Source: a virus
Taxonomy: Duplodnaviria > Heunggongvirae > Uroviricota > Caudoviricetes
Direction: 5' to 3' (one strand)
DNA length: 9,304 nucleotides
Virus record (IMG/VR): IMGVR_UViG_2671180603_000009
Span: 1-9,304 of that record
This document shows, one piece after another, positions 1-9,304 of this stretch (positions are counted from its first letter, which is position 1; every line of letters starts with the position of its first letter). The translations under genes and the position numbers were made by a program. Under the pieces are notes generated by a model. The model did no database searches. It was not told where the DNA came from and saw only the letters and a program-made list of their open reading frames with translations.

Positions 1-131
1 GGAGTGTCCGTTAAACTCAGGCTACCTCATACAGTGGGTAAACTTGTTTATCGGTGCTCATTGTTTTTTAACCTCAACTCAGATTAAAATTACTGCGAGT
101 GATGAATAAATGTCCCAGGTTCTTCACTCAG

Positions 132-161
132 GCCTGCACAGTGTGCAGGCTTTCTTTTTTT
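132..161 (+). terminator. Rho-independent terminator-like hairpin followed by T-run
   Basis: Perfect 8-bp inverted repeat GCCTGCAC (132-139) / GTGCAGGC (143-150) with 3-nt loop, then tttcttttttt (151-161). T-run is on the plus strand, so it would stop rightward transcription running into the minus-strand gene that ends at 161. Confidence 0.5.
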
Positions 162-436
162 CAGATTTCACCTTTTAATTTCATTGCAATCAGAGTTGCC
201 AGAAATTCGGCTTTTTTTTCTGCGGGCAGATTCTTTCCTATGTGCACCAGACACATTTTTTTTACACCATCGTTAAGTGTTTTAACGTTGCCTGATGGAC
301 CGTCGATATCAACCACAGTGAATGGGGTTTCTTTATTTTCTGTCTTAATCACGTAGCCAATACGCTTTCCTTCCAGATTAACCTCGTGAACAATGTCATC
401 AGTAGTTACAACAGTGGCTTCATAACTGGTAATCAT
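161..436 (-). CDS. hypothetical prophage protein (91 aa)
   Basis: ORF track 161-484; start chosen at internal ATG 436 (MITSYEAT...) because it is preceded by AAGGAG at 6-7 nt spacing. No family recognised. Confidence 0.65.
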   Translation of the reverse strand: MITSYEATVVTTDDIVHEVNLEGKRIGYVIKTENKETPFTVVDIDGPSGNVKTLNDGVKKMCLVHIGKNLPAEKKAEFLATLIAMKLKGEI

Positions 437-469
437 GTTTTTCTCCTTAATTAAGGTTGAGCGAACCCC

Positions 470-483
470 TGCCATTGCTGGCA
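470..483 (-). other. conserved hairpin at cassette boundary (GCAA tetraloop on minus strand); second copy at 1281-1294
   Basis: TGCCA-ttgc-TGGCA on plus, i.e. UGCCA-GCAA-UGGCA on minus; identical sequence at 1281-1294 downstream of each small-peptide gene. No U-run follows, so not called a terminator. Confidence 0.35.
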
Positions 484-520
484 TATAAGAATGAAACCGG
501 ATATTTATTACGGAACTGTT

Positions 521-712
521 TTAAAGACCTGCCGGGATTTCGTTATTATCATGGTGAATAACTTTATCGACCGGATAACAGTCACCGGGAATTTTCTGTT
601 TCGCTGCGGCAGTCATACATTCTTTCATTGAGCTGTATACGCCAGTAACCATGTCAACCGGTTCACCGGAAACAAGAAAAACCGTCAGAACGAGTGCAAA
701 TACTGTATTCAT
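521..712 (-). CDS. small putative secreted peptide, 63 aa (cassette copy 1)
   Basis: ORF track 521-766; start taken at ATG 712 (MNTVFALVLTVFLVSG...), which gives a hydrophobic signal-peptide-like N-terminus and an ATGA overlap with the stop of the upstream ORF at 709; two conserved Cys in the mature part; paralog at 1332-1523. Confidence 0.55.
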   Translation of the reverse strand: MNTVFALVLTVFLVSGEPVDMVTGVYSSMKECMTAAAKQKIPGDCYPVDKVIHHDNNEIPAGL

Positions 713-897
713 TGTGCACATCCTTTTGGCATCAGACGTAAACGAGCCAGCATTGAAACAATGCATATTTTATTTAATAGCTCCCGTTCGTGTTTTCTCT
801 TGTTAATGGCATCTTCAGTAAATACAGGGTTACTGATAGTGACACCAATTTCAAAACAACCTTCAGACGTATTAACGTTTGGTAATAACGTCTCCAT
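709..897 (-). CDS. hypothetical 62-aa protein (cassette copy 1)
   Basis: ORF 709-897; ATG 897 preceded by GAGGA at 7 nt; stop overlaps start of the peptide gene (ATGA); ~90% identical paralog at 1520-1708. Confidence 0.5.
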   Translation of the reverse strand: METLLPNVNTSEGCFEIGVTISNPVFTEDAINKRKHERELLNKICIVSMLARLRLMPKGCAQ

Positions 898-907
898 TAT
901 TGCGTCC

Positions 908-1238
908 TCAACAATGAATTTTGAGTAATTGTTCCACAGTCATATTTTTAATTGCGCCCCGGTTAACAAGAGTCCATCCCTGTTTTTCCAGATAAAACCG
1001 GAAAGTCTCCAGGGGACAGACCAGTGCGCCATCAGGAACGGTTTCGGTGAATTCGACATTGCCGAATTTGTCGAAGTGAACAACCAGGGTGCGGCCATCG
1101 CCTGGAATTATTTTGTCAGTGGGTGGGGTGTTATTCTGGCGCAGTTCGGCCTCCATGCGATCGAACTCAGCAATGTAGGCTTCTTTGAATGCGGCGGNNN
1201 NNNNNNNNNNNGGCGGCGCAAATAAAGACTTTACTCAT
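908..1238 (-). CDS. standalone homolog of the C-terminal domain of the Rha-like protein, interrupted by N-run 1198-1211
   Basis: Translation 908-1197 (...AAFKEAYIAEFDRMEAELRQNNTPP...LLKIHC) is ~92% identical to the C-terminal ~95 aa of the 1719-2276 protein. A candidate start ATG at 1238 (MSKVFICAA, GAGG upstream) lies beyond the N-run; frame across the Ns cannot be verified. Confidence 0.45.
1198..1211. other. run of 14 N (assembly gap or masked bases) inside a coding region
   Basis: Literal n characters; flanked on both sides by GCGGCGG-like sequence. Confidence 0.95.
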
Positions 1239-1331
1239 TTTGTTTTAACCTCATTACAGATTTAAGGGTGAACAAATCCCTGCCATTGCTGGCATATAAA
1301 AATGAAACCGGATATTTATTACGTGGCTGCT

Positions 1332-1523
1332 TTAAAGACCTGCCGGGACTTCTTTATTATCCTGGTGAATGATTTTATCAACCGGATAACAGTTACCGGG
1401 AATTTTCTGTTCAGCTGCAGCAGCCACGCATTCTTTCATGGAGTTGTATACTCCGGTAACCAGTTCAGCTGGTTCGCCCGTATTAAGAATAACGGTCAGA
1501 ACGAGTGCAAATGCTGTATTCAT
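1332..1523 (-). CDS. small putative secreted peptide, 63 aa (cassette copy 2)
   Basis: Start ATG 1523 (MNTAFALVLTVILNTG...), ATGA overlap with upstream ORF; ~75% aa identity to the 521-712 product. Confidence 0.55.
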   Translation of the reverse strand: MNTAFALVLTVILNTGEPAELVTGVYNSMKECVAAAAEQKIPGNCYPVDKIIHQDNKEVPAGL

Positions 1524-1708
1524 CGCCAGCATCCTTTTTGCATCAGACGCAAACGAGCCAGCATTGAAACAATGCATATTTTATTTAATGACTCCCGTTC
1601 GTGTTTTCTCTTGTTAATGGCATCTTCAGTAAATACCGTGTTACTGATAGTGACACCAATTTCAAAACAACCTTCAGTCGTATTAACGTTTGGTAATAAC
1701 GTTTCCAT
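1520..1708 (-). CDS. hypothetical 62-aa protein (cassette copy 2)
   Basis: ATG 1708 preceded by GAGGA (overlapping the rha stop codon); paralog of 709-897. Confidence 0.5.
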   Translation of the reverse strand: METLLPNVNTTEGCFEIGVTISNTVFTEDAINKRKHERESLNKICIVSMLARLRLMQKGCWR

Positions 1709-1718
1709 TATCGCGTCC

Positions 1719-2276
1719 TCAACAATGAATTTTGAGTAATTGCTCTACAGTCATATTTTTAATTGCGCCCCGGTTAACAAGAGTCCATCCCTGTTCTTCC
1801 AGATAAAACCGGAAAGTCTCCATGGTACAGACCCGTGCGCCATCAGGAACGGTTTCGGTGAATCTGATGTTGCCGCGTTCGTCGAAGTGAACAACCAGGG
1901 TGCGGCCATCGCCTGGAATTATTTTGTCAGTGGGTGGGGTGTTATTCTGGCGCAGTTCGGCCTCCATGCGATCGAACTCAGCAATGTAGGCTTCTTTAAA
2001 TGCAGCGGCTTTTTTGCCAGTGAATCCCATCACCAGGAAAACGAAGCCGTTTTTGGTGATTTGGTACATCGGGCGTTTTTCGCCTTTGGCGTCAGTGTAG
2101 GTGACGTCCTCAAAATTGAGGGCGTTAAATTCAGGTGAGCATTCAGTATTTGCGATGGCACGTAACACATTGTCGTGACGCTTGCCAAAGAACTCTGCGA
2201 TCGCAATAGACGTAGTGACAGCGCGACCATTTTCGATGGTTACGTCAGGGTGAGAAAGGGCAGGGATAGTAGCCAT
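1719..2276 (-). CDS. rha: Rha-family phage regulatory protein (185 aa)
   Basis: Start ATG 2276-2274 preceded by GAGGA at 7 nt. Translation contains the Rha-family signature as I recall it (...IAEFFGKRHDNVLRAI...FVFLVMGFTGKKAAAFKEAYIAEFDRMEAEL). ORF track extends to 2573 but that upstream extension is not accepted as coding. Confidence 0.8.
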   Translation of the reverse strand: MATIPALSHPDVTIENGRAVTTSIAIAEFFGKRHDNVLRAIANTECSPEFNALNFEDVTYTDAKGEKRPMYQITKNGFVFLVMGFTGKKAAAFKEAYIAEFDRMEAELRQNNTPPTDKIIPGDGRTLVVHFDERGNIRFTETVPDGARVCTMETFRFYLEEQGWTLVNRGAIKNMTVEQLLKIHC

Positions 2277-2316
2277 GATGGCATCCTCGAGTGATAAGTT
2301 AATTAACTCACCACCG

Positions 2317-2729
2317 AGGTTTTCCACGACCATAAGGGTGGTGTGACGTACAGGGGTGGAAATACCGGTCACTCGAGAACCCGGCCAGTCTTGCGACTGC
2401 CCTGCACATCCCACCATAATTTGAATGGAGCTGTGCATTACGCATAAAAAAACCGCTTCAGCGCGGCTATGCGCTCGAGTAACGTTCGGGTTTCCACGCC
2501 CGGCACCCGTTTTATAAGGTGCAGGTGCACTATAATTCCACCCGTTCTGGTTTTCAATAGCTACATTCAACATTTTCTCTTTCCTTTCATCACCGAAGTG
2601 AACTTTGTTGATGCGGTGCCTGGTGCCTCCAGGTGACGTTAACCAGTTAACAATTAACGCCGGATACAGGGAAACCCATAACCACCCGATACGGGGGAAC
2701 TAATCGCTTTTTAACTGTGCCGCGTGCGC
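2317..2729. repeat. copy 1 of a ~413-nt tandemly duplicated non-coding element immediately upstream of rha
   Basis: Aligns base for base with 2731-3143 (about 32 differences, ~92% identity); hairpin-rich; see findings. Confidence 0.9.
2446..2469 (-). terminator. terminator-like hairpin plus U7 within element copy 1
   Basis: Plus strand aaaaaaa (2446-2452) followed by ACCGC-ttcag-(c)GCGG; on the minus strand this is a GC hairpin followed by seven U. Stem is short (4-5 bp). Confidence 0.35.
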
Positions 2730-2730
2730 N

Positions 2731-3143
2731 AGGTTTTCCACGACCATAAGGGTGGTGAGACGTACAGGGGTGGAAATACCGGTCATCACGGAACCCGGCC
2801 AGTCTTGCGACTGCCCCGCACGCCCCACCATAATTTGAATGTGGCTGTGCATTACGCATAAAAAAACCGCCTGAGCGCGGTTATGCGCCGTGAATGACTT
2901 CGGGGTAGCAATCCCGGCACCCGTTTTATGAGGTGCAGGTGCACTATAATTCCACCCGTTCTGGTTTTCAATAGCTACATTCAACATTTTCTCTCACCTT
3001 TCATCACCGAAGTGAATTTTGTTGATGCGGTGCCTGGTGCCTCCAGGTGACGTTAACCAGTTAACAATTAACGCCGGATACAGGGAAACCCATAACCACC
3101 CGATACGGGGGAACTAATCGCTTTTTAACTGTGCCGCGTGCGC
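2731..3143. repeat. copy 2 of the ~413-nt tandemly duplicated element
   Basis: See 2317-2729; a single n at 2730 sits exactly at the junction of the two copies. Confidence 0.9.
2860..2883 (-). terminator. terminator-like hairpin plus U7 within element copy 2
   Basis: Plus strand aaaaaaa (2860-2866) then ACCGC-ctgag-(c)GCGGT; minus strand reads as a hairpin followed by U7. Confidence 0.35.
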
Positions 3144-3177
3144 TGAGCCGCATTCACCGCATCACAAAATTCACTTT

Positions 3178-3218
3178 AAAAAGGGCGGACATCAGCCAGC
3201 AATGAAACTGATGCCGCC
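3178..3218 (-). terminator. candidate Rho-independent terminator on the minus strand
   Basis: GGCGGACATCAG (3184-3195) pairs with CTGATGCCGCC (3208-3218), 11 bp with one bulge and a 12-nt loop; on the minus strand the hairpin is followed by CCCUUUUUAAA (plus a-run 3178-3182). Confidence 0.4.
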
Positions 3219-3418
3219 AAAGGTACCAATCAACATGGAGTGTTGTGGCGTGGTTGTCACTTAAGCGTATGGTCAACCTGACAACCCGGTGTCCTCAACG
3301 GGGAAGGAATAACTCCGCCATACTTACCGCCGCGTCATTTCGCGTTGTGTGCCTGCTTTTAACCACGTCAGGCGAGGTGGTATCCTTCTTATCCCGAATA
3401 ACCAAGAAGGAAATCTAT

Positions 3419-3619
3419 ATGACTAAAGAAGAATTTGTCTCTTATATTTTTGATAAAACGGTTGAAATGTATGCCGCTACTTACGGGTCCTGTAATCCTC
3501 TGAATAAACCAGAGGGAAAAGATGATTTCGACAAAATTTACCGCTTCTTGGAGGACCGCTATATCAAAAGCTTAGAGGACGCAGGGATCAAATCCCCAGT
3601 GAAGTCACCATTGTCCTGA
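3419..3619 (+). CDS. hypothetical small protein (66 aa), the only plus-strand gene in the left arm
   Basis: ATG 3419 preceded by AAGGAA at ~7 nt; the ORF track start at 3245 uses an alternative start with no RBS and is rejected; 3' end overlaps the convergent gene 3588-3965 by 32 bp. Confidence 0.5.
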   Translation: MTKEEFVSYIFDKTVEMYAATYGSCNPLNKPEGKDDFDKIYRFLEDRYIKSLEDAGIKSPVKSPLS

Positions 3620-3965
3620 GAACTTGCAGAACGTCATGATCATAACTTCCATCCAAACCGCGACGGCGAATTGCTTCTCGTATTACCGGAAGCAGTTCGC
3701 TGGAAATCTCGGTGCATATTTCACCTGATAATACGCTTGGCTCAAGTGAGAATATTGGTGAACTTACGGTCTTGGTCTCGACAGTTTCAGAGTCAGTGCC
3801 AACATTATAAAGCTCAACGAAAGCGGTCTTGATTTTCCGGGCCAGATCTTTTGCTGGCTCGCTTGCAATATCTTTCCCGATTTCTCGCAGCACAGAATGC
3901 AATGTATGAGCTGCTGTTTTCTGTACATCAGACGGTAAATCTTTAAATTCCATCGTCAGCCTCAT
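3588..3965 (-). CDS. hypothetical protein (125 aa; 121 aa if started at ATG 3953)
   Basis: ATG 3965 overlaps the stop of the upstream gene (TGATG coupling); alternative ATG at 3953 has GAGG 6 nt upstream. No family recognised. Confidence 0.6.
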   Translation of the reverse strand: MRLTMEFKDLPSDVQKTAAHTLHSVLREIGKDIASEPAKDLARKIKTAFVELYNVGTDSETVETKTVSSPIFSLEPSVLSGEICTEISSELLPVIREAIRRRGLDGSYDHDVLQVLRTMVTSLGI

Positions 3966-4117
3966 CAGTCAGTGTTTCTGGCTAACCAGCAACGCGCGCC
4001 AGATTCGGTTTTAAACGTTTTGCTTTTGGTATACGTCATGGCGGTAAACGTTCCATCCTGGTTAGGGAACACGCCGCACACCAGAGATTCGTTGTTGCCA
4101 AGATCGATAGTATCCAT
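3965..4117 (-). CDS. hypothetical small protein (50 aa; 68 aa if started at 4171)
   Basis: ORF track 3965-4171; ATG 4117 (MDTIDLG...) has GAGGT 5 nt upstream whereas ATG 4171 has no obvious RBS. First gene downstream of the operator-controlled leftward promoter. Confidence 0.45.
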   Translation of the reverse strand: MDTIDLGNNESLVCGVFPNQDGTFTAMTYTKSKTFKTESGARCWLARNTD

Positions 4118-4296
4118 GCTGACCTCATTTCCCCTTAACGCCGGGGTGGCGGAACAAAAAACCTGCTGCATAGTTAAAGATTGAACCCTGCCGTCATGTT
4201 CTTACGCCTCGGGCTGGCTACTTAACCCCTGACCACTGTCTGGTAACTCGAAGTATTGCCCTGCATTCTGTGGGGCGGGGTGGGTTGACGCCTGAA

Positions 4297-4338
4297 AAAA
4301 TAGCATCATTATTTTTTGATGTAAATAGCATCGCTATT
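4297..4338 (-). promoter_or_regulatory. leftward early promoter (PL-like) overlapped by two repressor-operator-like inverted repeats
   Basis: Minus strand reads TTTACA (plus 4320-4325), 17-bp spacer, TATTTT (plus 4297-4302). Inverted repeats AATAG-N5-(C/T)TATT at 4299-4313 and 4324-4338, centres 25 bp apart, overlap the -10 and -35; same motif recurs at 5434-5473. Confidence 0.5.
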
Positions 4339-4350
4339 GTTTTTGTTGGG

Positions 4351-4377
4351 GCAAGAAAAAACCACCCTAAGGTGGTT
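4351..4377 (-). terminator. Rho-independent terminator downstream of the toxin gene
   Basis: AACCACC-ctaa-GGTGGTT (4360-4377) preceded on plus by an A-run (4356-4361); on the minus strand this is a 7-bp stem followed by UUUUUUC, 17 nt after the stop at 4394. Confidence 0.6.
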
Positions 4378-4393
4378 CTGTCGGCGGGAATAA

Positions 4394-4684
4394 TTAACTG
4401 TTTTTGCCTGGATACTGTCTTCGAGAATGCACAATATTTACTACTTCTATGCTTGATGCTGTTACTCGGTAAAGGATGATGTAGTTAGGATGAGTTACAA
4501 TTTCACGAAGACCAAGAACTCGCTCGCTTGGAGGATACAGGTAAGGATGCTCTGTGAGCGGCAAAACGGATGTTTCAATTCGAATTTTCATTCTGCGTGC
4601 TGCCGCGGGATTTTCTTTAGCTATGTAGGCTACGATCTGGCGCAAATCATCACGAGCAGATGGTAGCCATAAAACGGGTAACAT
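4394..4684 (-). CDS. parE: ParE/RelE-superfamily toxin (96 aa)
   Basis: Translation MLPVLWLPSARDDLRQIVAYI...HPYLYPP...LREIVTHPNYIILYRV...VVNIVHSRRQYP matches my recollection of ParE-type toxins; start overlaps the stop of the upstream antitoxin gene (TAATG). Confidence 0.8.
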   Translation of the reverse strand: MLPVLWLPSARDDLRQIVAYIAKENPAAARRMKIRIETSVLPLTEHPYLYPPSERVLGLREIVTHPNYIILYRVTASSIEVVNIVHSRRQYPGKNS

Positions 4685-4878
4685 TATTCACCTCTGTGAG
4701 TTGCAGCAGCAATTTGGGCAATAATTTGTTCCATTTCCGCCATTACCTCATCATGCGGAATCGCCGGGCGGGGATCCGCGAGGCTTGCTGCTACTTTGGC
4801 CCGCAGCCATTCGTTGTAACTATTTTCTTGCTCAACTGTCTCAAATTCTGAAACCATTGGGGAAAGGACTGTACTCAT
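4684..4878 (-). CDS. small antitoxin (64 aa), likely PaaA/ParD-like partner of the ParE toxin
   Basis: Small acidic protein directly upstream of and translationally coupled to the toxin gene; AGGAG-like RBS about 12 nt upstream of ATG 4878. Resemblance to the PaaA2 antitoxin of E. coli O157 is from memory and unverified. Confidence 0.65.
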   Translation of the reverse strand: MSTVLSPMVSEFETVEQENSYNEWLRAKVAASLADPRPAIPHDEVMAEMEQIIAQIAAATHRGE

Positions 4879-4897
4879 TTTACATATCTCCTCTGAT

Positions 4898-5398
4898 TTA
4901 GGCGCGACGGCCTTTTTGTGCAGCTAACCACCGCGCAACCGTACGATCCATTGATTCTTTTTTATCTTTCATCTCCTGAAGCATGTGTTCTTGATCTTCT
5001 TTCGGAAAAGCTCTGAACGTATGGATTAAATCTCGTTCCATCGGCTCTACGGCAAACGGTAGTTCATCCTCTGTTTGTTCTGTGTCTGCTGGTAATGCGA
5101 CTATGTTATCTTGCTGTGGTTCTCGACAATACATCCTTGCAATTTGCAGCAAATCTACCATGTCTGGCCTGATTGACTCAGGGGGAACTTTCAGTAAGCC
5201 AGCAAACTTTAGAACAGCCTCAAGGTTTAGTGGGGTTTGACCATTTAGGTAGTGACTTACCGCCCCTTGTGTTGAAAACCCCATAATTTCCGCCGCACGT
5301 TCCTGAGTCAATCCCAACTGAGATTTCTTTGCCATCCAGATTTCTTTCAGTCTTCTGGCGGCGTTGAGGTCGGTGTCTGACAATGATTTTCTTTTCAT
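4898..5398 (-). CDS. HTH (XRE-family) transcriptional repressor, RacR/PaaR-like, 166 aa
   Basis: ORF track 4898-5428 (GTG start); ATG 5398 (MKRKSLSDT...) preferred. HTH-like segment LGLTQERAAEIMGFSTQGAVSHYLNGQ; acidic C-terminus with no recognisable S24 peptidase (LexA-like) motif; divergent from the Cro-like gene and 19 nt upstream of the antitoxin gene. Confidence 0.75.
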   Translation of the reverse strand: MKRKSLSDTDLNAARRLKEIWMAKKSQLGLTQERAAEIMGFSTQGAVSHYLNGQTPLNLEAVLKFAGLLKVPPESIRPDMVDLLQIARMYCREPQQDNIVALPADTEQTEDELPFAVEPMERDLIHTFRAFPKEDQEHMLQEMKDKKESMDRTVARWLAAQKGRRA

Positions 5399-5405
5399 AC
5401 ATCCA

Positions 5406-5475
5406 ATTCTAATAAGATTGCTAATCACTTTGAAATAGCATCACTATTTACTTTTAAAAATAACAGTGCTATTAA
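5406..5475. promoter_or_regulatory. divergent promoter/operator region (OR-like)
   Basis: Inverted repeats AATAG-catca-CTATT (5434-5448) and AATAA-cagtg-CTATT (5459-5473), centres 25 bp apart, plus weaker AATAA-gattg-CTAAT (5411-5425). Plus-strand TTTACT (5447-5452), 17 bp, TATTAA (5470-5475) upstream of the Cro-like gene; minus-strand TTTCAA/18 bp/TAGAAT (plus 5406-5411) just upstream of the repressor ATG. Confidence 0.5.
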
Positions 5476-5509
5476 TTATGCATTGGTAACACATCACATA
5501 GGGCGGATT

Positions 5510-5773
5510 ATGAATCTTGGAGAATATTTGCATCATTTTCATATAACCCAGAGTTCATTTGCTGAGATTGTTGGCGCATCCCAAGGGATGGTCAGCCACG
5601 TTATAACGGGGCGTGCAAAACTTACAGGAGAAAAAATATTACGTTGGTGTGAAGCAACGGGATGGGTGGTGACCCCACATGAGATTGACAGTAAAACCTA
5701 CCCCAACCCAACTGACGGCTTGCCTGCTGAGTTTCAGGCTAACACACAACCATCGGCGGGGGTTGATTCATGA
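5510..5773 (+). CDS. Cro-like / YdaS-family HTH protein (87 aa)
   Basis: ATG 5510 (MNLGEYL...); ORF track start 5483 is a TTG. HTH-like TQSSFAEIVGASQGMVSHVITGRAK; first rightward gene divergent from the repressor; stop overlaps next gene (ATGA at 5770-5773). Confidence 0.7.
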   Translation: MNLGEYLHHFHITQSSFAEIVGASQGMVSHVITGRAKLTGEKILRWCEATGWVVTPHEIDSKTYPNPTDGLPAEFQANTQPSAGVDS

Positions 5774-6195
5774 AAATCAAGCATGAACACATCCGCATGG
5801 CGATGAAAGCCTGGGCGCATCCGGACGGTGAAAAAGTTCCGGCAGCTGAAATAACCAGGGTTTATTTCGAACTGGGAATGACGTTTCCGGTTCTGCATAA
5901 CGACAGCAAGCACAACACGCTTTATCTCAACACCCAAAAGATTTTCCGTTGGCTGGATAAAGACACCCCTGACGCTGTTGAAAAAATTCAGGCGTTGTTA
6001 CCTGCGATCGAAAGGGCAATGCCACCTCCGCTGGTGGCTCGAATGCGCAGCCACAGTTCAGCTTATTTTCGGGAACTGGTGGAGACGCATGAACGACTGG
6101 TGAGAGACGCTGATGATTTTGTCGCAGTGGCAATCGCCGGTTTCAATCAGATGAACCGTGGTGGCCCGGCAGGAAATGCTGTGGCAGTACATTGA
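5770..6195 (+). CDS. YdaT-like protein (141 aa)
   Basis: N-terminus MKIKHEHI... and position directly after the Cro-like gene match my recollection of Rac prophage YdaT-family proteins; translationally coupled to the upstream gene. Confidence 0.7.
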   Translation: MKIKHEHIRMAMKAWAHPDGEKVPAAEITRVYFELGMTFPVLHNDSKHNTLYLNTQKIFRWLDKDTPDAVEKIQALLPAIERAMPPPLVARMRSHSSAYFRELVETHERLVRDADDFVAVAIAGFNQMNRGGPAGNAVAVH

Positions 6196-6266
6196 CTGAC
6201 AATAGCCATATCGAATCGCTCCCGGCAACTCGTGAGTAAAAAGATTCGGTATCAGAAGAGGTGAGT

Positions 6267-7331
6267 ATGGCTAACGCCTGGCTCAGATTATGGCATGACA
6301 TGCCAAATGACCCTAAGTGGCGAACAATTGCCAGGGTGTCAGGGCAGCCAATTGCAACAGTGATGGCAGTGTATATCCACCTCCTGGTGAGCGCGTCACG
6401 AAATGTCACGCGAGGTCACATTGATGTCACGACAGAAGATTTGGCAAGTGCGCTCGACGTGACAGAAGAGGTAATTGATTCAATTTTGCAGACGATGCAG
6501 GGGCGGGTACTTGATGGTGATTTAATCACTGGATGGGAAAAACGCCAGGTGCTTAAAGAGGACAACGGCAATATTTCGCAAACCGCAAAATCTCCTGCAG
6601 AGCGCAAGAGGGCGCAGCGAGAGAGGGAAAGAAAGCGGGAACAAAATGGCGATTGTCACGGCGCGTCACGAAATGTCACGCACATGTCACGACGAGTCAC
6701 GACAGATACAGATAAAGATACAGATAAAGAAGATCAAAACACTATGGTCCATGGCGTAAAAAACGCCACGAACCAGGCAGGGGATGTTCAGACCGTCAAT
6801 CCTGGTCAGCCAGCAGGCTCGACACCGGAAGCCGATTCAGCGTATGCGCTGAAAGCCGATTCGGGCGCTGTGCAGCAGGTGATGACCGCAAGGCCGGAGC
6901 AATCACTCCAACTGCAGCAGCCTGAAGCCGATTCCGCCATTCAGCGGGAAGCCGATCGGGTAGCCCCGGAAAACACCGGGCAGCCTGTGGGACGAGTGGA
7001 TTATCCGGATGTGTTCGAACAGGTCTGGCGGGAATACCCGTTGCGTGCCGGGGCAAACCCGAAGAAATCCGCATTCAGTGCCTGGAAGGCCAGATTGCGC
7101 GAGGGGGTGCCACCAGAGACCATGCTGGATGGTGTGAGGCGTTACGCGAGATACCTGGCGGCGACCGGGAAAGCGGGAACGGAATTTGTTCAGCGAGCGA
7201 CGACGTTTTTTGGGCCGGACCGGAATTTTGAAAACCCCTGGTTGCTCCCGGTAAGCGGCACGAACAACCAGCGTTGTGTGAATCATATTTCTGAACCGGA
7301 TACCGAAATTCCGCCGGGATTCAGGGGGTGA
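6267..7331 (+). CDS. phage replication initiator / replisome organizer (O-like, YdaU-type), 354 aa
   Basis: ATG 6267 preceded by AGAGGTGA; N-terminus MANAWLRLWHDMPNDPKWRTIA... is typical of prophage replication proteins as I recall them; iteron-like repeats lie inside the gene; followed 6 nt later by a DnaC-like gene. Confidence 0.8.
   Translation: MANAWLRLWHDMPNDPKWRTIARVSGQPIATVMAVYIHLLVSASRNVTRGHIDVTTEDLASALDVTEEVIDSILQTMQGRVLDGDLITGWEKRQVLKEDNGNISQTAKSPAERKRAQRERERKREQNGDCHGASRNVTHMSRRVTTDTDKDTDKEDQNTMVHGVKNATNQAGDVQTVNPGQPAGSTPEADSAYALKADSGAVQQVMTARPEQSLQLQQPEADSAIQREADRVAPENTGQPVGRVDYPDVFEQVWREYPLRAGANPKKSAFSAWKARLREGVPPETMLDGVRRYARYLAATGKAGTEFVQRATTFFGPDRNFENPWLLPVSGTNNQRCVNHISEPDTEIPPGFRG
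6388..6430. repeat. iteron cluster 1 (four GTCAC(G/A) repeats at ~10-bp spacing)
   Basis: GTCACG at 6392, 6402, 6423 and GTCACA at 6412; the 21-mer gcgcgtcacgaaatgtcacgc (6388-6408) is repeated exactly at 6661-6681. Confidence 0.6.
6654..6728. repeat. iteron cluster 2 (five GTCACG repeats) plus AT-rich 12-bp tandem repeat; candidate replication origin
   Basis: GTCACG at 6655, 6665, 6675, 6686, 6696 (spacing 10/10/11/10), then gatacagataaa x2 (6705-6728). Arrangement resembles phage lambda, whose origin lies inside gene O. Confidence 0.55.
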
Positions 7332-7337
7332 TGTGGC

Positions 7338-8084
7338 ATGAAAAACATTGCGGCAGCCGGGGTTCTTGAACGTATTCACAGACTTGCACCACAGGGGGCG
7401 GTTCCACCGTACCGGACGGTGGAGGAGTGGCGGGAATGGCAACTTGCTGAAGGACGAAAACGCAGCGAGGAGATTAACCGCCAGAATCGCCAGTTGCGGG
7501 TGGAAAAAATCCTGAATCGTTCGGGCATCCAGCCTCTGCACAGCAAATGCTCGTTTGCGAATTATCAGGTGCAGAACGACGGGCAAAAATACGCGCTGAG
7601 CCAGGCCAAATCCATAGCTGACGAACTGATGACCGGGTGCACGAATTTTGTGTTCAGCGGTAAAACCGGCACCGGGAAAAATCACCTTGCAGCGGCGATG
7701 GGTAACTGGCTGATGGCGAAGGGGCGCAGCGTGATTATCGTCACCGTGTCTGATGTCATGAGCGTGTTGCATGACAGCTACGACAACGGCAAATCCGGTG
7801 AAAAATTTTTACAGGAGCTTTGCGGGGTTGATTTGCTGGTCCTGGATGAAATAGGCATTCAGCGGGAGACGAAAAACGAGCAGGTGGTATTGCACCAGAT
7901 AATTGATCGCCGGACAGCATCACTGTGCAGTGTCGGGATGTTAACAAACCTGAATCATGCCGCAATGAGCACGCTTCTTGGTGAGAGGATTATGGACCGC
8001 ATGACCATGAACGGTTGTCGGTGGGTGACGTTTAACTGGGATAGCTGGCGTTCAAATGTCAGCTTTCCGGGAGTTGTGAAGTAA
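7338..8084 (+). CDS. DnaC/IstB-like AAA+ helicase loader (248 aa)
   Basis: Walker A GKTGTGKNHLAAA and Walker B LLVLDEIG visible in the translation; start 6 nt after the initiator stop. Confidence 0.85.
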   Translation: MKNIAAAGVLERIHRLAPQGAVPPYRTVEEWREWQLAEGRKRSEEINRQNRQLRVEKILNRSGIQPLHSKCSFANYQVQNDGQKYALSQAKSIADELMTGCTNFVFSGKTGTGKNHLAAAMGNWLMAKGRSVIIVTVSDVMSVLHDSYDNGKSGEKFLQELCGVDLLVLDEIGIQRETKNEQVVLHQIIDRRTASLCSVGMLTNLNHAAMSTLLGERIMDRMTMNGCRWVTFNWDSWRSNVSFPGVVK

Positions 8085-8105
8085 TTTTTGTTGGAGGATG
8101 TTTTA

Positions 8106-8831
8106 ATGGAAACTGTATTTGACGCACTGAAAGCACTGAAAAGAGCCTCTTCACATGTGGTGGCGTCCCGCCTTGGAATCAGCCGTGAAGATGCGGTCAA
8201 CGAACTGTGGAAACTGAAGCGCCGTGGTGAAGCGGATAACAAGGGTTCGATGTGGTGGCTGATTCAGGCTGGTGAAAGTGAACCAGTGTCACCGGTACCG
8301 AAAGTGACAGCGCAAATGCTGACTGAGGCGATTGAACAACATGGCCCACAAACGGCGGATGAGCTGGCACTGATGTTCGGGATTACCTCCCGCCGGGCGA
8401 ATTCATCGCTGGCCATGGCAATCAGCAAAGGGCGTCTGATTCGCGTGAATCAGGGCGGTAAATTTCGGTACTGCATACCGGGCGCTGATTTACCGGCAGA
8501 GCCGAAAGCCGCATCCATAGCGGAAACGGATGGTAAAGTCTTTCCTCAGCCAGCAGGTGTTGCGTTACCGGTACAGGAAGCTGCAACACAGGAAGAAATT
8601 AAAACAGAAACTGTGGCGGACATTGTGCAGTCGTTGCCATCGTTCACCGAAACGCAAGCGGATGACCTGGTTTTACCATCGCTGCATATGGCAAACCGCG
8701 AACTGCGTCGGGCGAAAAGTCATGTCCAGAAGTGGGAGCGTGTCTGCGCCGCGTTGCGGGAGCTGAACAAGCACCGGGATATTGTTCGACAGATTGTCGA
8801 TTCCTCCGGTCGTATTGTGTCGGAAAAGTGA
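8106..8831 (+). CDS. hypothetical prophage protein with two winged-helix-like repeats (241 aa)
   Basis: ATG 8106 preceded by GGAGGA; ORF track start 8088 is TTG. Two similar N-terminal segments ([10 protein letters not shown]...; [10 protein letters not shown]...), acidic linker, coiled-coil-like C-terminus. Family not verified. Confidence 0.6.
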
Positions 8832-8846
8832 TTGCCGGGGGCGCTT

Positions 8847-9269
8847 ATGGCAAAAGTATTTACACAGGAAGAGCGGGAAAAAATTAAGGGGCAGGTTGTT
8901 GAACTCGTACGCCAGAGTGGGCGCGAGACGTTACGACAACTGGAAGCTAAAACCGGGGCGACAAGATATTTAATAAGCGTTCTCGCCAGAGAGCTGGTTG
9001 CCAGTGGGGATGTATACAACTCTGGCTACGGGTTATTCCCGTCTGAACAGGCTCGTAAGGACTGGCAAAACGCCCGCAAAAAACTCTCGAGGGCAAAGCT
9101 GAAGAAACCATCTGTGGTTGATCCGGACCTTATCTGGTCATTACCAGACGGAGAAATACGCCGCTACGACAGACATCAGAACATAATCTGTCGCGAGTGC
9201 CGGAAGAGTGAAGTTATGCAGCGTGTACCGGCTTTCTATCAGGGTGATTTTCAGGAGGCGGTACTGTGA
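8847..9269 (+). CDS. hypothetical protein (140 aa)
   Basis: ATG 8847 preceded by GGGGG at ~6 nt; ORF track start 8832 is TTG; basic, possibly DNA-binding; no family recognised. Confidence 0.55.
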   Translation: MAKVFTQEEREKIKGQVVELVRQSGRETLRQLEAKTGATRYLISVLARELVASGDVYNSGYGLFPSEQARKDWQNARKKLSRAKLKKPSVVDPDLIWSLPDGEIRRYDRHQNIICRECRKSEVMQRVPAFYQGDFQEAVL

Positions 9270-9304
9270 GTGAAATTAGCTATCAGGCTTCAATTACCGC
9301 TGGC

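Follow-up and report, generated by a model that had tools for sequence, protein, structure and literature searches.

A putatively chimeric lambda cI/PaaR-type immunity repressor and its PaaA-ParE genes in a lambdoid prophage

Results

We analyzed a 9,304-nt stretch of Caudoviricetes virus DNA (IMG/VR record IMGVR_UViG_2671180603_000009, positions 1-9,304; hereafter the window) and find that it in all likelihood carries the immunity region of a lambdoid prophage resembling Rac, Qin and CP-933P, in which the repressor gene is cotranscribed leftward with genes for a PaaA-family antitoxin and a ParE-family toxin as a three-component module of the PaaR-PaaA-ParE type. The combination of repressor and toxin-antitoxin (TA) operon is not new; it is well described, and a cryptic E. 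coli O157:H7 prophage provides the experimental precedent; the window copy is a heteroimmune member of these CP-933P-type paaR-paaA-parE operons. An earlier note on this DNA had proposed the match to PaaR-PaaA-ParE systems, which stands as to gene order, junctions, position and the PaaA and ParE families, but not as to the repressor, which is not a full-length PaaR2 homologue.

Organization of the repressor-antitoxin-toxin unit

The three genes, which the earlier note had described as co-oriented across 4394-5398, are all intact on the minus strand and encode a 166-aa immunity repressor (4898-5398, ATG at 5398), a 64-aa antitoxin (4684-4878) and a 96-aa toxin (4394-4684). Their junctions are likewise as claimed: the repressor and antitoxin genes are separated by 19 nt (4879-4897), and the antitoxin and toxin genes overlap by 1 nt. 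The spacer reads ATCAGAGGAGATATGTAAA on the transcribed strand and provides, as read from the sequence, a GAGGAG Shine-Dalgarno ribosome-binding site 9 nt before the antitoxin ATG, with equivalent gaps of 17-27 nt in relatives. The antitoxin gene lies directly upstream of the ParE gene with a TAATG overlap at 4684, a translationally coupled arrangement, and GAGGTG is found upstream of the toxin start. Repressor, antitoxin and toxin genes thus follow one another on one strand with no room for an intergenic terminator, and a terminator lies after the toxin gene. This putative, t_imm-like intrinsic terminator of the transcript (4351-4382, minus strand), earlier placed at 4351-4377, was recovered by folding as a hairpin and T tract at ~4353-4379 (AACCACC-TTAG-GGTGGTT followed by the T tract on the minus strand; -15.1 kcal/mol, z = -2.8 relative to shuffles). 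All four related immunity types compared (L001, L002, L003 and L004) have a hairpin here too, with differing stem sequences. A simple pattern scan for terminators did not list the 4353-4379 hairpin, which we treat as a false negative given the fold; our guess is that stem extension consumed the T run.

The homology search against PaaA2 and ParE2 to which the earlier note had pointed returned both families. The toxin matches Pfam ParE_toxin (PF05016; E = 1.8e-17, 64.1 bits, cut-off 23, residues 4-91 of 96) and ParE2 in the PDB (5cw7_B; E = 6.7e-37, residues 1-93). It is 100% identical to WP_014334020 of E. coli RMDEC465, 86% identical to the toxin of a second O157 copy (L002) and 67% identical to ParE2 from an O157:H7 genome. 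The antitoxin matches Pfam PaaA2 (PF21217; E = 3e-23, 81.9 bits, cut-off 27), the NCBIfam model TA_RelB_antitoxin (E = 3e-27) and PaaA2 in the PDB (3zbe_A; E = 1.4e-23); it shares 77% identity with its counterpart in the second O157 copy and, along residues 1-56, 75% with PaaA2, whereas its C-terminal third is unrelated to that of PaaA2. PaaA2 is its sole Pfam match, and no RHH, HTH or AbrB match to a DNA-binding domain was found within its 64 residues. Growth inhibition or SOS induction in the absence of antitoxin have been reported for ParE2 only (PMC8630535). In RefSeq the three proteins are named simply "helix-turn-helix domain-containing protein", "RelB family antitoxin" and "RelE/ParE family toxin".

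A lambda cI-type DNA-binding domain on a PaaR/DicA-type C-terminal module

The repressor matches Pfam HTH_3 (E = 8e-9), and its N-terminal domain is homologous to that of lambda cI in the PDB (1lmb; E = 3e-9, phmmer), with the acidic residues E33 and E37 aligned to E34 and D38 of lambda cI. Its AlphaFold2 (AF2) model features helices over residues 8-91, a low-confidence linker at 92-113 and further helices over 119-165, of which 119-129 and 133-165 are predicted at pLDDT 80-91. Foldseek comparison of this model with the lambda cI N-terminal domain gives target-normalized TM-scores of 0.82-0.94 at 37-40% identity. The C-terminal part has a different affiliation: residues 123-166 align with residues 80-123 of PaaR2 (52% identity, E = 5e-15), the rest of PaaR2 remaining unaligned; the last 64 residues are 56% identical to the repressor of the second O157 copy; and residues 106-162 match the NCBIfam DicA model PRK09706, albeit below its cut-off (E = 7e-8). 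A helical domain of ~48 residues (LL.TF.AFPEEDQE...ARWLAAQK) is common to the window repressor and PaaR2 in the alignment.

Structure-database searches with the window repressor did not return 7nkv, 8c3k or 8c3l, which represent the PaaR2 N-terminal domain, and a word-indexed homologue search with the same query missed PaaR2, the genuine paaR2 being located via the published primer F-1-PaaR2. An assignment as full-length PaaR2 homologue was rejected, as only the last 44 residues are PaaR2-like and the N-terminal domain is of the lambda cI type. Sequence comparison and the AF2 model together indicate that the repressor is a natural chimera, in which a lambda cI-type DNA-binding domain is joined through a predicted disordered linker to a C-terminal domain of ~48 residues of the PaaR/DicA type. 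The repressor has no Pfam match to Peptidase_S24, the LexA-like autocleaving domain. A repressor of this chimeric build, devoid of any peptidase domain that RecA could cleave, makes the prophage heteroimmune to CP-933P as well as CP-933M and is itself probably not directly SOS-cleavable. A search of the window for LexA boxes yielded nothing above chance, and for this reason no SOS input is proposed.

Candidate operators and promoters

The placement of the unit between OR-like and OL-like regions, as put forward in the earlier note, agrees with our analysis: candidate operators of the form AATAG-N5-CTATT flank the repressor, antitoxin and toxin genes on both sides. Allowing at most one mismatch, the window holds four such sites against 0.21 expected (none of 200 shuffles reached four), and all four fall inside predicted control regions, at 4299 and 4324 (OL) and at 5434 and 5459 (OR). 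The OR-like region (5406-5475) comprises the candidate operators 5434-5448 and 5459-5473 and a weaker third one with two mismatches at 5411-5425, with center-to-center spacings of 23 and 25 bp. It also contains divergent promoter-like sequences. A leftward PRM-like promoter (TTCAAA at 5434-5429, 17-nt spacer, TAGAAT at 5411-5406) lies 7 nt upstream of the repressor ATG and has its predicted start at the ATG or 1 nt before it, a position that makes a leaderless repressor mRNA probable, on the model of PaaR2 and cI (PMC8630535). The rightward PR-like promoter has weak hexamers, read by eye (TTTACT at 5447-5452, 17-nt spacer, TATTAA at 5470-5475). The center of the OR2-like site (5441) is 42-43 nt upstream of the predicted leftward start, and lambda OR2 sits at -42.

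On the opposite side, the OL/PL-like region (4297-4338, minus strand) presents two candidate operators (4299-4313 and 4324-4338) that overlap a leftward PL-like promoter (TTTACA at 4325-4320, 17 nt, TATTTT at 4302-4297); only these two sites were found, as opposed to three in lambda. An O104-type relative whose repressor locus is 78% identical keeps the operator half-sites and varies their centers. Overall, the promoter scan is at chance level (4 found vs. 3.6 expected). Sequence and the CP-933P precedent are consistent with binding of the repressor to these candidate operators at the operon promoter, PR and PL.

The genes divergent from the repressor complete the region. A Cro-like HTH gene in the YdaS position (5510-5773, plus strand) encodes a protein that matches Pfam HTH_3 under the gathering score (E = 4e-4), is 85% identical to an O104-type Cro-like protein and 36% identical to the YdaS-position protein of the second O157 copy, and gives no blastp match to YdaS of CP-933P. 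It is followed on the plus strand by a gene for a YdaT-family regulator, a CII analogue (5770-6195; Pfam YdaT_toxin, E = 5e-9), which is 77% identical to YdaT of CP-933P. The cro/ydaT junction contains a candidate YdaT operator, TTGATTCATGAAAATCAA (5763-5780), whose 18 bp recur unchanged in CP-933P (L004) and in the second O157 copy and match perfectly the published TTGATT-N6-AATCAA YdaT site (PMC9986795).

Discussion

Proposed mode of action

We propose a working model drawn from the sequence and from the experiments on CP-933P. In lysogeny, repressor dimers or oligomers would occupy the AATAG-N5-CTATT sites at OR and OL and keep off both PR, with its Cro-like and YdaT genes, and PL. Repressor bound to the OR2-like site would adjoin the -35 element of the PRM-like promoter, from which a leaderless mRNA would start at the repressor ATG, cross the 19-nt gap to enter paaA and then parE, which overlaps it, and end at the ~4353-4379 hairpin, just before OL/PL. 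Such a single transcript from the repressor promoter is suggested here by the anatomy of the locus and has been shown for CP-933P alone. During establishment, YdaT at 5763-5780 would activate a PRE-like leftward promoter and thereby provide a second input to the operon; hexamers for such a promoter were sought and none was located with confidence, and CP-933P has a different sequence to the left of the YdaT site. PaaA, devoid of a DNA-binding domain and protease-labile in the characterized homologue, would neutralize ParE through direct binding. Were the immunity cassette lost or replaced, antitoxin resupply would stop and ParE would be freed, a toxin whose homologue is found at the nucleoid and elicits SOS. 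Cells or recombinants losing the immunity region would then be penalized, amounting to addiction and stabilization.

Relation to characterized immunity regions

paaR2-paaA2-parE2 of the cryptic prophage CP-933P of E. coli O157:H7 was reportedly described by Hallez in 2010. Its operon structure, PRM-type drive and the role of PaaR2 as cI analogue were established by Jurenas (2021), together with PRM, PR, PL and PRE, the leaderless paaR2 mRNA and bistability (PMC8630535). PaaR2 is opposed there by the Cro-like YdaS and the CII-like YdaT, and is termed a cI analogue "despite lacking sequence similarity"; the operon is addictive in that it stabilizes plasmids (PMC8630535). No ParE2 activity was detected in CP-933P in either transcriptional state (PMC8630535), and its physiological role therefore remains a proposal. 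Formation and specificity of the PaaA-ParE complex have been described, along with partial repression of the paaR promoter by this complex (PMC4803016).

The window shares with CP-933P the gene order, the short junctions, the hairpin after parE, the placement of the unit between OR (with divergent Cro-like and YdaT genes) and OL/PL, the PaaA2 and ParE families, the identical YdaT operator, the homologous C-terminal ~45 residues of the repressor and a promoter positioned for leaderless repressor mRNA. The differences, besides the divergence of toxin and antitoxin given above, concern the repressor, the operators and the Cro-like protein: the solved PaaR2 N-terminal domain (7nkv, 8c3k) is unrelated to the lambda cI-like one of the window, four GTTTAGTAA-type inverted repeats stand in CP-933P against the AATAG-N5-CTATT sites of the window's three-site OR, and YdaS has no detectable similarity to the Cro-like protein. 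Homology to CP-933P resumes exactly at 4287, outside OL, and on the other side at 5759, the YdaT site, and these break points delimit an exchangeable immunity cassette. The second O157:H7 copy is presumably the CP-933M paralogue paaR1-paaA1-parE1, assigned by elimination. It offers the closest TA pair from the characterized strain background and the same flanking ydfA, ydfB, dicB and YdaT genes, yet has a 133-aa repressor with another HTH domain and AAAACTGTT-type repeats as operators.

With lambda itself the window has in common the homologous repressor N-terminal domain, a putative three-site OR, an OR2-like site adjoining the -35 element of PRM, a probably leaderless repressor mRNA and accessory genes downstream of the repressor that, judging from their arrangement, would be cotranscribed with it and terminated before OL/PL. 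It differs in the short helical PaaR/DicA-type module that replaces the S24 peptidase domain, in its type II TA cargo, in the CII role being taken by the unrelated YdaT protein and in the two sites found at OL. The analogy to the rexAB position drawn in the earlier note is stated verbatim in the literature, where the TA pair replaces rexAB (PMC9986795); only the genomic position is shared, as Pfam searches of the cargo give ParE and PaaA2, without similarity to either RexA or RexB. Canonical ParD-ParE modules of two genes (RK2, Vibrio, Caulobacter) likewise contain a ParE-family toxin, but the window antitoxin lacks an RHH or other DNA-binding domain and autoregulation is passed to the prophage-level repressor. 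The DicA (Qin) and RacR (Rac) repressors, which have partners of the YdaS/YdaT type, resemble that of the window in the C-terminal match to the DicA model and in their ydfA, dicB and YdaT neighborhood, and differ from it in the N-terminal domain. To our knowledge, neither Qin nor Rac of K-12 has been described with PaaA-ParE in the slot after the repressor.

Alternative interpretations

The HTH protein could instead be a dedicated third TA component, supplying a split-off antitoxin DNA-binding domain rather than prophage immunity. That the module was first framed as a "three-component TA" is in line with this, as is the partial repression of the paaR promoter by the PaaA-ParE complex (PMC4803016). 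We consider it very improbable given the lambda cI-type N-terminal domain, the divergent Cro-like/YdaT pair, and the recurrence of the OR operators over a second leftward promoter at OL, at a distance of 1.1 kb; moreover, the slot beside repressors of this family can hold quite other kinds of cargo or an uncharacterized gene, and Bartonella, Acetobacteraceae and sphingomonads have PaaA-ParE pairs with no HTH gene upstream. Transcription of the TA genes chiefly from a promoter of their own, independently of the repressor gene, might be sought in a promoter-like site within that gene (5311-5283; TTGACT, 17 nt, AATTAT), but this site would still read most of the gene and promoter-like matches occur at chance frequency. 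With just a ribosome-binding site in the 19-nt gap, no terminator between the genes and an operon demonstrated experimentally in the CP-933P homologue (PMC8630535), we regard such independence as improbable. Decay of the module into a nonfunctional remnant would fit the N gaps and partial duplications in the surrounding window and the cryptic state of CP-933P itself; it is very improbable for ORFs that are uninterrupted and as long as expected from the solved homologues, that encode proteins found identical in independent genomes, and that are under purifying selection (dN/dS 0.05-0.13 across the three genes, with 0.05-0.07 for the toxin and 0.07-0.13 for the antitoxin gene, synonymous divergence being saturated).

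A further reading, compatible with addiction, holds that PaaA-ParE is anti-phage cargo expressed from PRM like RexAB, acting by abortive infection or exclusion and triggered by infection rather than by cassette loss. It draws on the rexAB position of the pair (PMC9986795) and on the PADLOC-matching cargo that related prophages hold in the same slot. A PADLOC search with PaaA, ParE and the repressor, on the other hand, matched no defense model for any of the three, our literature search found no phage-challenge test of PaaA-ParE and nothing specific on ParDE/PaaA defense, and the published data describe addiction through plasmid stabilization with no steady-state toxin activation (PMC8630535). 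We therefore judge an anti-phage function unlikely, and retain as the likely reading a prophage immunity repressor cotranscribed with a putatively addictive PaaA-ParE pair.

Distribution and cargo of the slot

DNA of the TA pair is present in 842 of 5,426 complete E. coli genomes. A scan of species-representative genomes with a PaaA alignment returned no enterobacterial loci and only alpha- and betaproteobacterial two-gene PaaA-ParE pairs, matches that are informative on origin and not on prophage context. In the phage genome collection, phage Evi alone carries a PaaR2-type cassette, and no isolated phage with the immunity type of the window was found. Prophages sharing the N- or C-terminal domain of the repressor harbor other cargo in the same slot: a HigB/HTH pair matching PD-Lambda-2_A/B in PADLOC, a HipA_2 and DUF3037 pair matching the candidate system PDC-M66A/B, or one uncharacterized gene. 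The rexAB position of lambdoid prophages is known to collect defense and TA genes, and the variable cargo in this slot fits that idea. The C-terminal module of ~48 residues, for its part, occurs with a lambda cI-type, a PaaR1-type, both in tandem, or a PaaR2-type DNA-binding domain. One could imagine from this that the stretch from repressor to OL in YdaS/YdaT-type lambdoid prophages is a general exchangeable bay for toxin and defense cargo under PRM, served by repressors with interchangeable DNA-binding domains on a common C-terminal module, and that PaaA-ParE serves lysogens as a RexAB-like device against phages or recombination and not only in addiction; we offer this broader view as speculative and rather doubtful.

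Implications

The finding has little import beyond correct annotation, in that the three genes can be given the names of a PaaR-type immunity repressor and of PaaA-ParE. Unlike PaaR2, however, the window repressor has a DNA-binding domain with clear sequence homology to lambda cI, which lends further weight to the view, already published, that the "third component" of such TA systems is simply the prophage repressor. Furthermore, the apparent chimera of a lambda N-terminal and a PaaR C-terminal domain would be natural material for studying cooperativity without an S24 domain.

Gene organisation and protein identities

In the immunity region of the prophage, three co-oriented genes on the minus strand encode a repressor of 166 aa (4898-5398, ATG at 5398), an antitoxin of 64 aa (4684-4878) and a toxin of 96 aa (4394-4684). 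These are exactly the coordinates of the earlier note, whose observations on reading frames, junctions, terminator fold and operators are borne out in every detail. The repressor-antitoxin spacer (4879-4897, 19 nt), which reads ATCAGAGGAGATATGTAAA on the coding strand, contains only a GAGGAG ribosome-binding site, and the antitoxin stop and toxin start have one base in common (TAATG). A GTG at 5428 offers a possible longer repressor start; RefSeq homologues use the 166-aa form.

The toxin belongs to Pfam family ParE_toxin (E = 1.8e-17) and aligns end to end with the solved ParE2 structure (5cw7, E = 6.7e-37), while the antitoxin matches both Pfam PaaA2 (E = 3e-23) and solved PaaA2 (3zbe, E = 1.4e-23) and has no DNA-binding domain, so that the proposed homology to ParE and PaaA holds for both proteins. 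The repressor carries a Pfam HTH_3 domain, its residues 2-81 align with the N-terminal domain of lambda cI (E = 3e-9), and residues 106-162 match the DicA model in its C-terminal portion with a score below cut-off (E = 7e-8). In an AlphaFold2 model computed with 39 homologues as input, residues 8-91 form a helical N-terminal domain predicted with confidence, residues 92-113 a disordered linker and residues 119-165 a C-terminal domain made of a helix, a turn and a long helix. Foldseek superposes the first of these domains on structures of lambda cI with target-normalised TM scores of 0.82-0.94 at 37-40% identity. The repressor lacks an S24 peptidase domain.

On the minus strand 3' of the toxin gene, the sequence AACCACC-TTAG-GGTGGTT followed by a T tract folds into a terminator hairpin at -15.1 kcal/mol (z = -2.8). 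A simple terminator pattern scan of the window did not list this hairpin, probably because the T run is consumed by stem extension. All four immunity types compared have a hairpin after parE, with unrelated stems in three of them, and this retention of position without retention of sequence supports a functional terminator that would insulate PL from PRM transcription.

A lambda-like control region

The divergently oriented genes at 5510-5773 (a Cro-like HTH protein) and 5770-6195 (YdaT family), the replication genes on the rightward side, and ydfA (DUF1391) with dicB-type genes farther out to the left of OL place the operon in the immunity region of a lambdoid prophage of Rac/Qin/CP-933 type. 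The palindrome AATAG-N5-CTATT occurs, with at most one mismatch, at four sites against 0.21 expected: at 5434 and 5459 between the repressor gene and its divergent neighbour, and at 4299 and 4324 just past the terminator. A third OR site with two mismatches lies at 5411, which puts the OR centres at 5418, 5441 and 5466 with spacings of 23 and 25 bp. The O104:H4-type locus (L003) keeps the half-sites AATAG and CTATT and differs in the five central bases, as expected of true operator half-sites.

A leftward PRM-like promoter (TTCAAA at 5434-5429, 17-nt spacer, TAGAAT at 5411-5406) lies 7 nt ahead of the ATG of the repressor gene with no ribosome-binding site in between, implying a leaderless repressor mRNA, as for cI and PaaR2. 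The middle OR site is centred 42-43 nt upstream of the predicted PRM start, the centre of lambda OR2 being at -42 of PRM, and E33 and E37 of the repressor are aligned with E34 and D38, which serve lambda cI in positive control; together, this geometry and alignment make lambda-style activation of PRM by the repressor plausible. The PR-like promoter, read by eye (TTTACT, 17-nt spacer, TATTAA at 5447-5475), has its -10 element overlapped by the rightmost OR site, and the two OL sites overlap the -35 and -10 elements of a leftward promoter at 4325-4297.

Across the cro/ydaT junction lies the sole perfect match in the window to the YdaT operator TTGATT-N6-AATCAA (Prolic-Kalinsek et al. 2023, PMC9986795), TTGATTCATGAAAATCAA at 5763-5780, and CP-933P and the second O157:H7 copy (L002) share these 18 bp. 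DNA similarity to CP-933P picks up again at 4287, immediately to the left of OL, and at 5759, at the YdaT site; within these limits it is confined to the toxin-antitoxin genes and the 3' end of the repressor gene, at about 76%. These boundaries delimit an immunity cassette of about 4288-5758, a typical lambdoid mosaic unit.

Relation to characterised systems

The earlier note read the operon as a PaaR-PaaA-ParE-type system in the position of the lambda rexAB genes, an interpretation that is correct and already known from CP-933P (PMC8630535, PMC9986795). In that prophage paaR2-paaA2-parE2 form an operon in the immunity region; PaaR2, translated from a leaderless mRNA, is a functional cI analogue whose operators, set between PRM and the divergent PR, overlap with those of the Cro analogue YdaS, a PL with matching operators lies past the toxin-antitoxin genes, and the CII analogue YdaT activates a PRE-like promoter (Jurenas et al. 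2021, PMC8630535). The locus is bistable and stabilises an unstable plasmid (PMC8630535). O157:H7 carries a second, paralogous system, with no cross-neutralisation in the PaaA1/ParE2 and PaaA2/ParE1 combinations (PMC4803016).

We located genuine paaR2 in an O157:H7 genome via the published primer F-1-PaaR2. Relative to this CP-933P locus (L004), the window proteins show 67% identity for the toxin, 77% for YdaT and 75% for antitoxin residues 1-56, whereas the C-terminal third of the antitoxin is unrelated, the repressor aligns only over its last 44 residues (52%) and the Cro-like protein gives no hit to YdaS. The second O157 copy, presumably the CP-933M paralogue by elimination, is closer (toxin 86%, antitoxin 77%, Cro-like protein 36%, YdaT 81%), its repressor aligning over the last 64 residues only (56%), and the O104:H4-type locus matches throughout (toxin 87.5%, antitoxin 83%, Cro-like protein 85%, YdaT 77%), including a full-length repressor of the same 166-aa architecture (78%). 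In E. coli RMDEC465 the toxin and the antitoxin are both identical to those of the window and the repressor is 99.4% identical, and the top matches in a large protein collection carry the labels Shigella sonnei and E. coli. Of 5426 complete E. coli genomes, 842 contain the toxin-antitoxin DNA, 593 contain the PaaR2 primer sequence and 65 cover at least 80% of window positions 3500-6300 at one place. Purifying selection acts on all three genes: in pairwise comparisons with diverged homologues, dN/dS is 0.05-0.07 for the toxin, 0.07-0.13 for the antitoxin and 0.08 for the repressor, and synonymous sites are close to saturation. Escherichia phage Evi (LR597642.1, 24332-25192, L052) also has genes for a PaaR2-type regulator and for PaaA2, with an unannotated ParE2-like ORF 67% identical to the window toxin.

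Other features of the window

An N run (1198-1211) and a single N (2730) each adjoin a partial tandem duplication of 85-96% identity (451-750/1262-1561, 2317-2474/2731-2888, 2485-2729/2899-3143) involving the dicB/DUF1482 or the Ash/C4/isrK block. This has the look of two similar prophages scaffolded together or collapsed in a draft assembly rather than of a biological duplication. C4 antisense RNA (2334-2421 and 2748-2835, both minus) and isrK (2446-2522 and 2860-2936, both minus) match at Rfam gathering level directly upstream of a minus-strand ORF (1719-2573) with Phage_ASH and Phage_pRha domains, resembling a P1 immI-like antisense-controlled antirepressor module. Such a module could be an induction route for a repressor without an S24 cleavage domain; a search for a LexA box found none. 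A 125-aa ORF in the PL-side operon (3588-3965, minus) and a convergent 66-aa ORF (3419-3619, plus) have no Pfam, NCBIfam or PADLOC match, and window positions 3500-3973 (1-474 of the 3500-6300 query), holding most of both, are uncovered in the closest E. coli genomes.

A modular repressor upstream of a cargo slot

Repressor homologues are built in modular fashion around one common C-terminal domain of about 48 residues (alignment A2), which is joined to a lambda-cI-type HTH in the window and O104 type (166 aa), to a different HTH in the L002 type (132-133 aa), to both HTH domains in tandem (about 244 aa) or to the PaaR2 N-terminal domain (123 aa). In the tandem proteins P0013, P0018, P0020 and P0022 (about 244 aa), the lambda-cI-type HTH precedes the PaaR1-type one; the window repressor looks like a tandem-HTH protein minus the second HTH.

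The cargo after the repressor gene varies among loci that all adjoin Cro-like and YdaT genes: PaaA-ParE after P0043-type repressors, HipA_2 with DUF3037 after a tandem-HTH type (L041, 3787-5360; hits to the PADLOC candidate system PDC-M66A/B), a HigB/HTH pair after a Salmonella diarizonae relative (L044, 3612-4339; hits to PADLOC PD-Lambda-2_A/B) and an uncharacterised 112-120-aa gene after a common Salmonella type (L049, 3577-3915). PaaA, ParE and the repressor match no PADLOC model. In Bartonella, Acetobacteraceae and sphingomonads, PaaA-ParE also occurs as a plain two-gene module with no HTH gene ahead of it, in agreement with a published proposal that the immunity region of a prophage acquired the pair by insertion (PMC8630535). 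This occurrence argues that the "third component" of PaaR-PaaA-ParE is the prophage repressor itself and not a dedicated toxin-antitoxin regulator. Loci L005-L040 (Bartonella, Acetobacteraceae, Sphingomonadales and some Burkholderiales) encode antitoxins 55-80% identical to the PaaA alignment, in most cases with a ParE gene next and mostly without a co-oriented HTH gene, and show such antitoxins to be widespread beyond the enterobacteria; some pairs lie on small plasmid-like contigs beside replication-protein-like genes, and in Bartonella several of the ParE genes carry a frameshift or are truncated.

Overall, the feature is real, and the system is a heteroimmune member of the experimentally characterised CP-933P kind. 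As far as we found, two of its traits are not yet described: a chimeric repressor, with a lambda-cI-type domain on a PaaR-type C-terminal domain, together with its lambda-like three-site OR, and a toxin-antitoxin pair more similar to that of the second O157 paralogue than to PaaA2-ParE2. Even for CP-933P the physiological role is still a proposal, namely that the module guards the immunity region against loss or replacement (PMC8630535); for the copy in the window the candidate functions are defence against phages and an addictive or stabilising effect on the immunity cassette.
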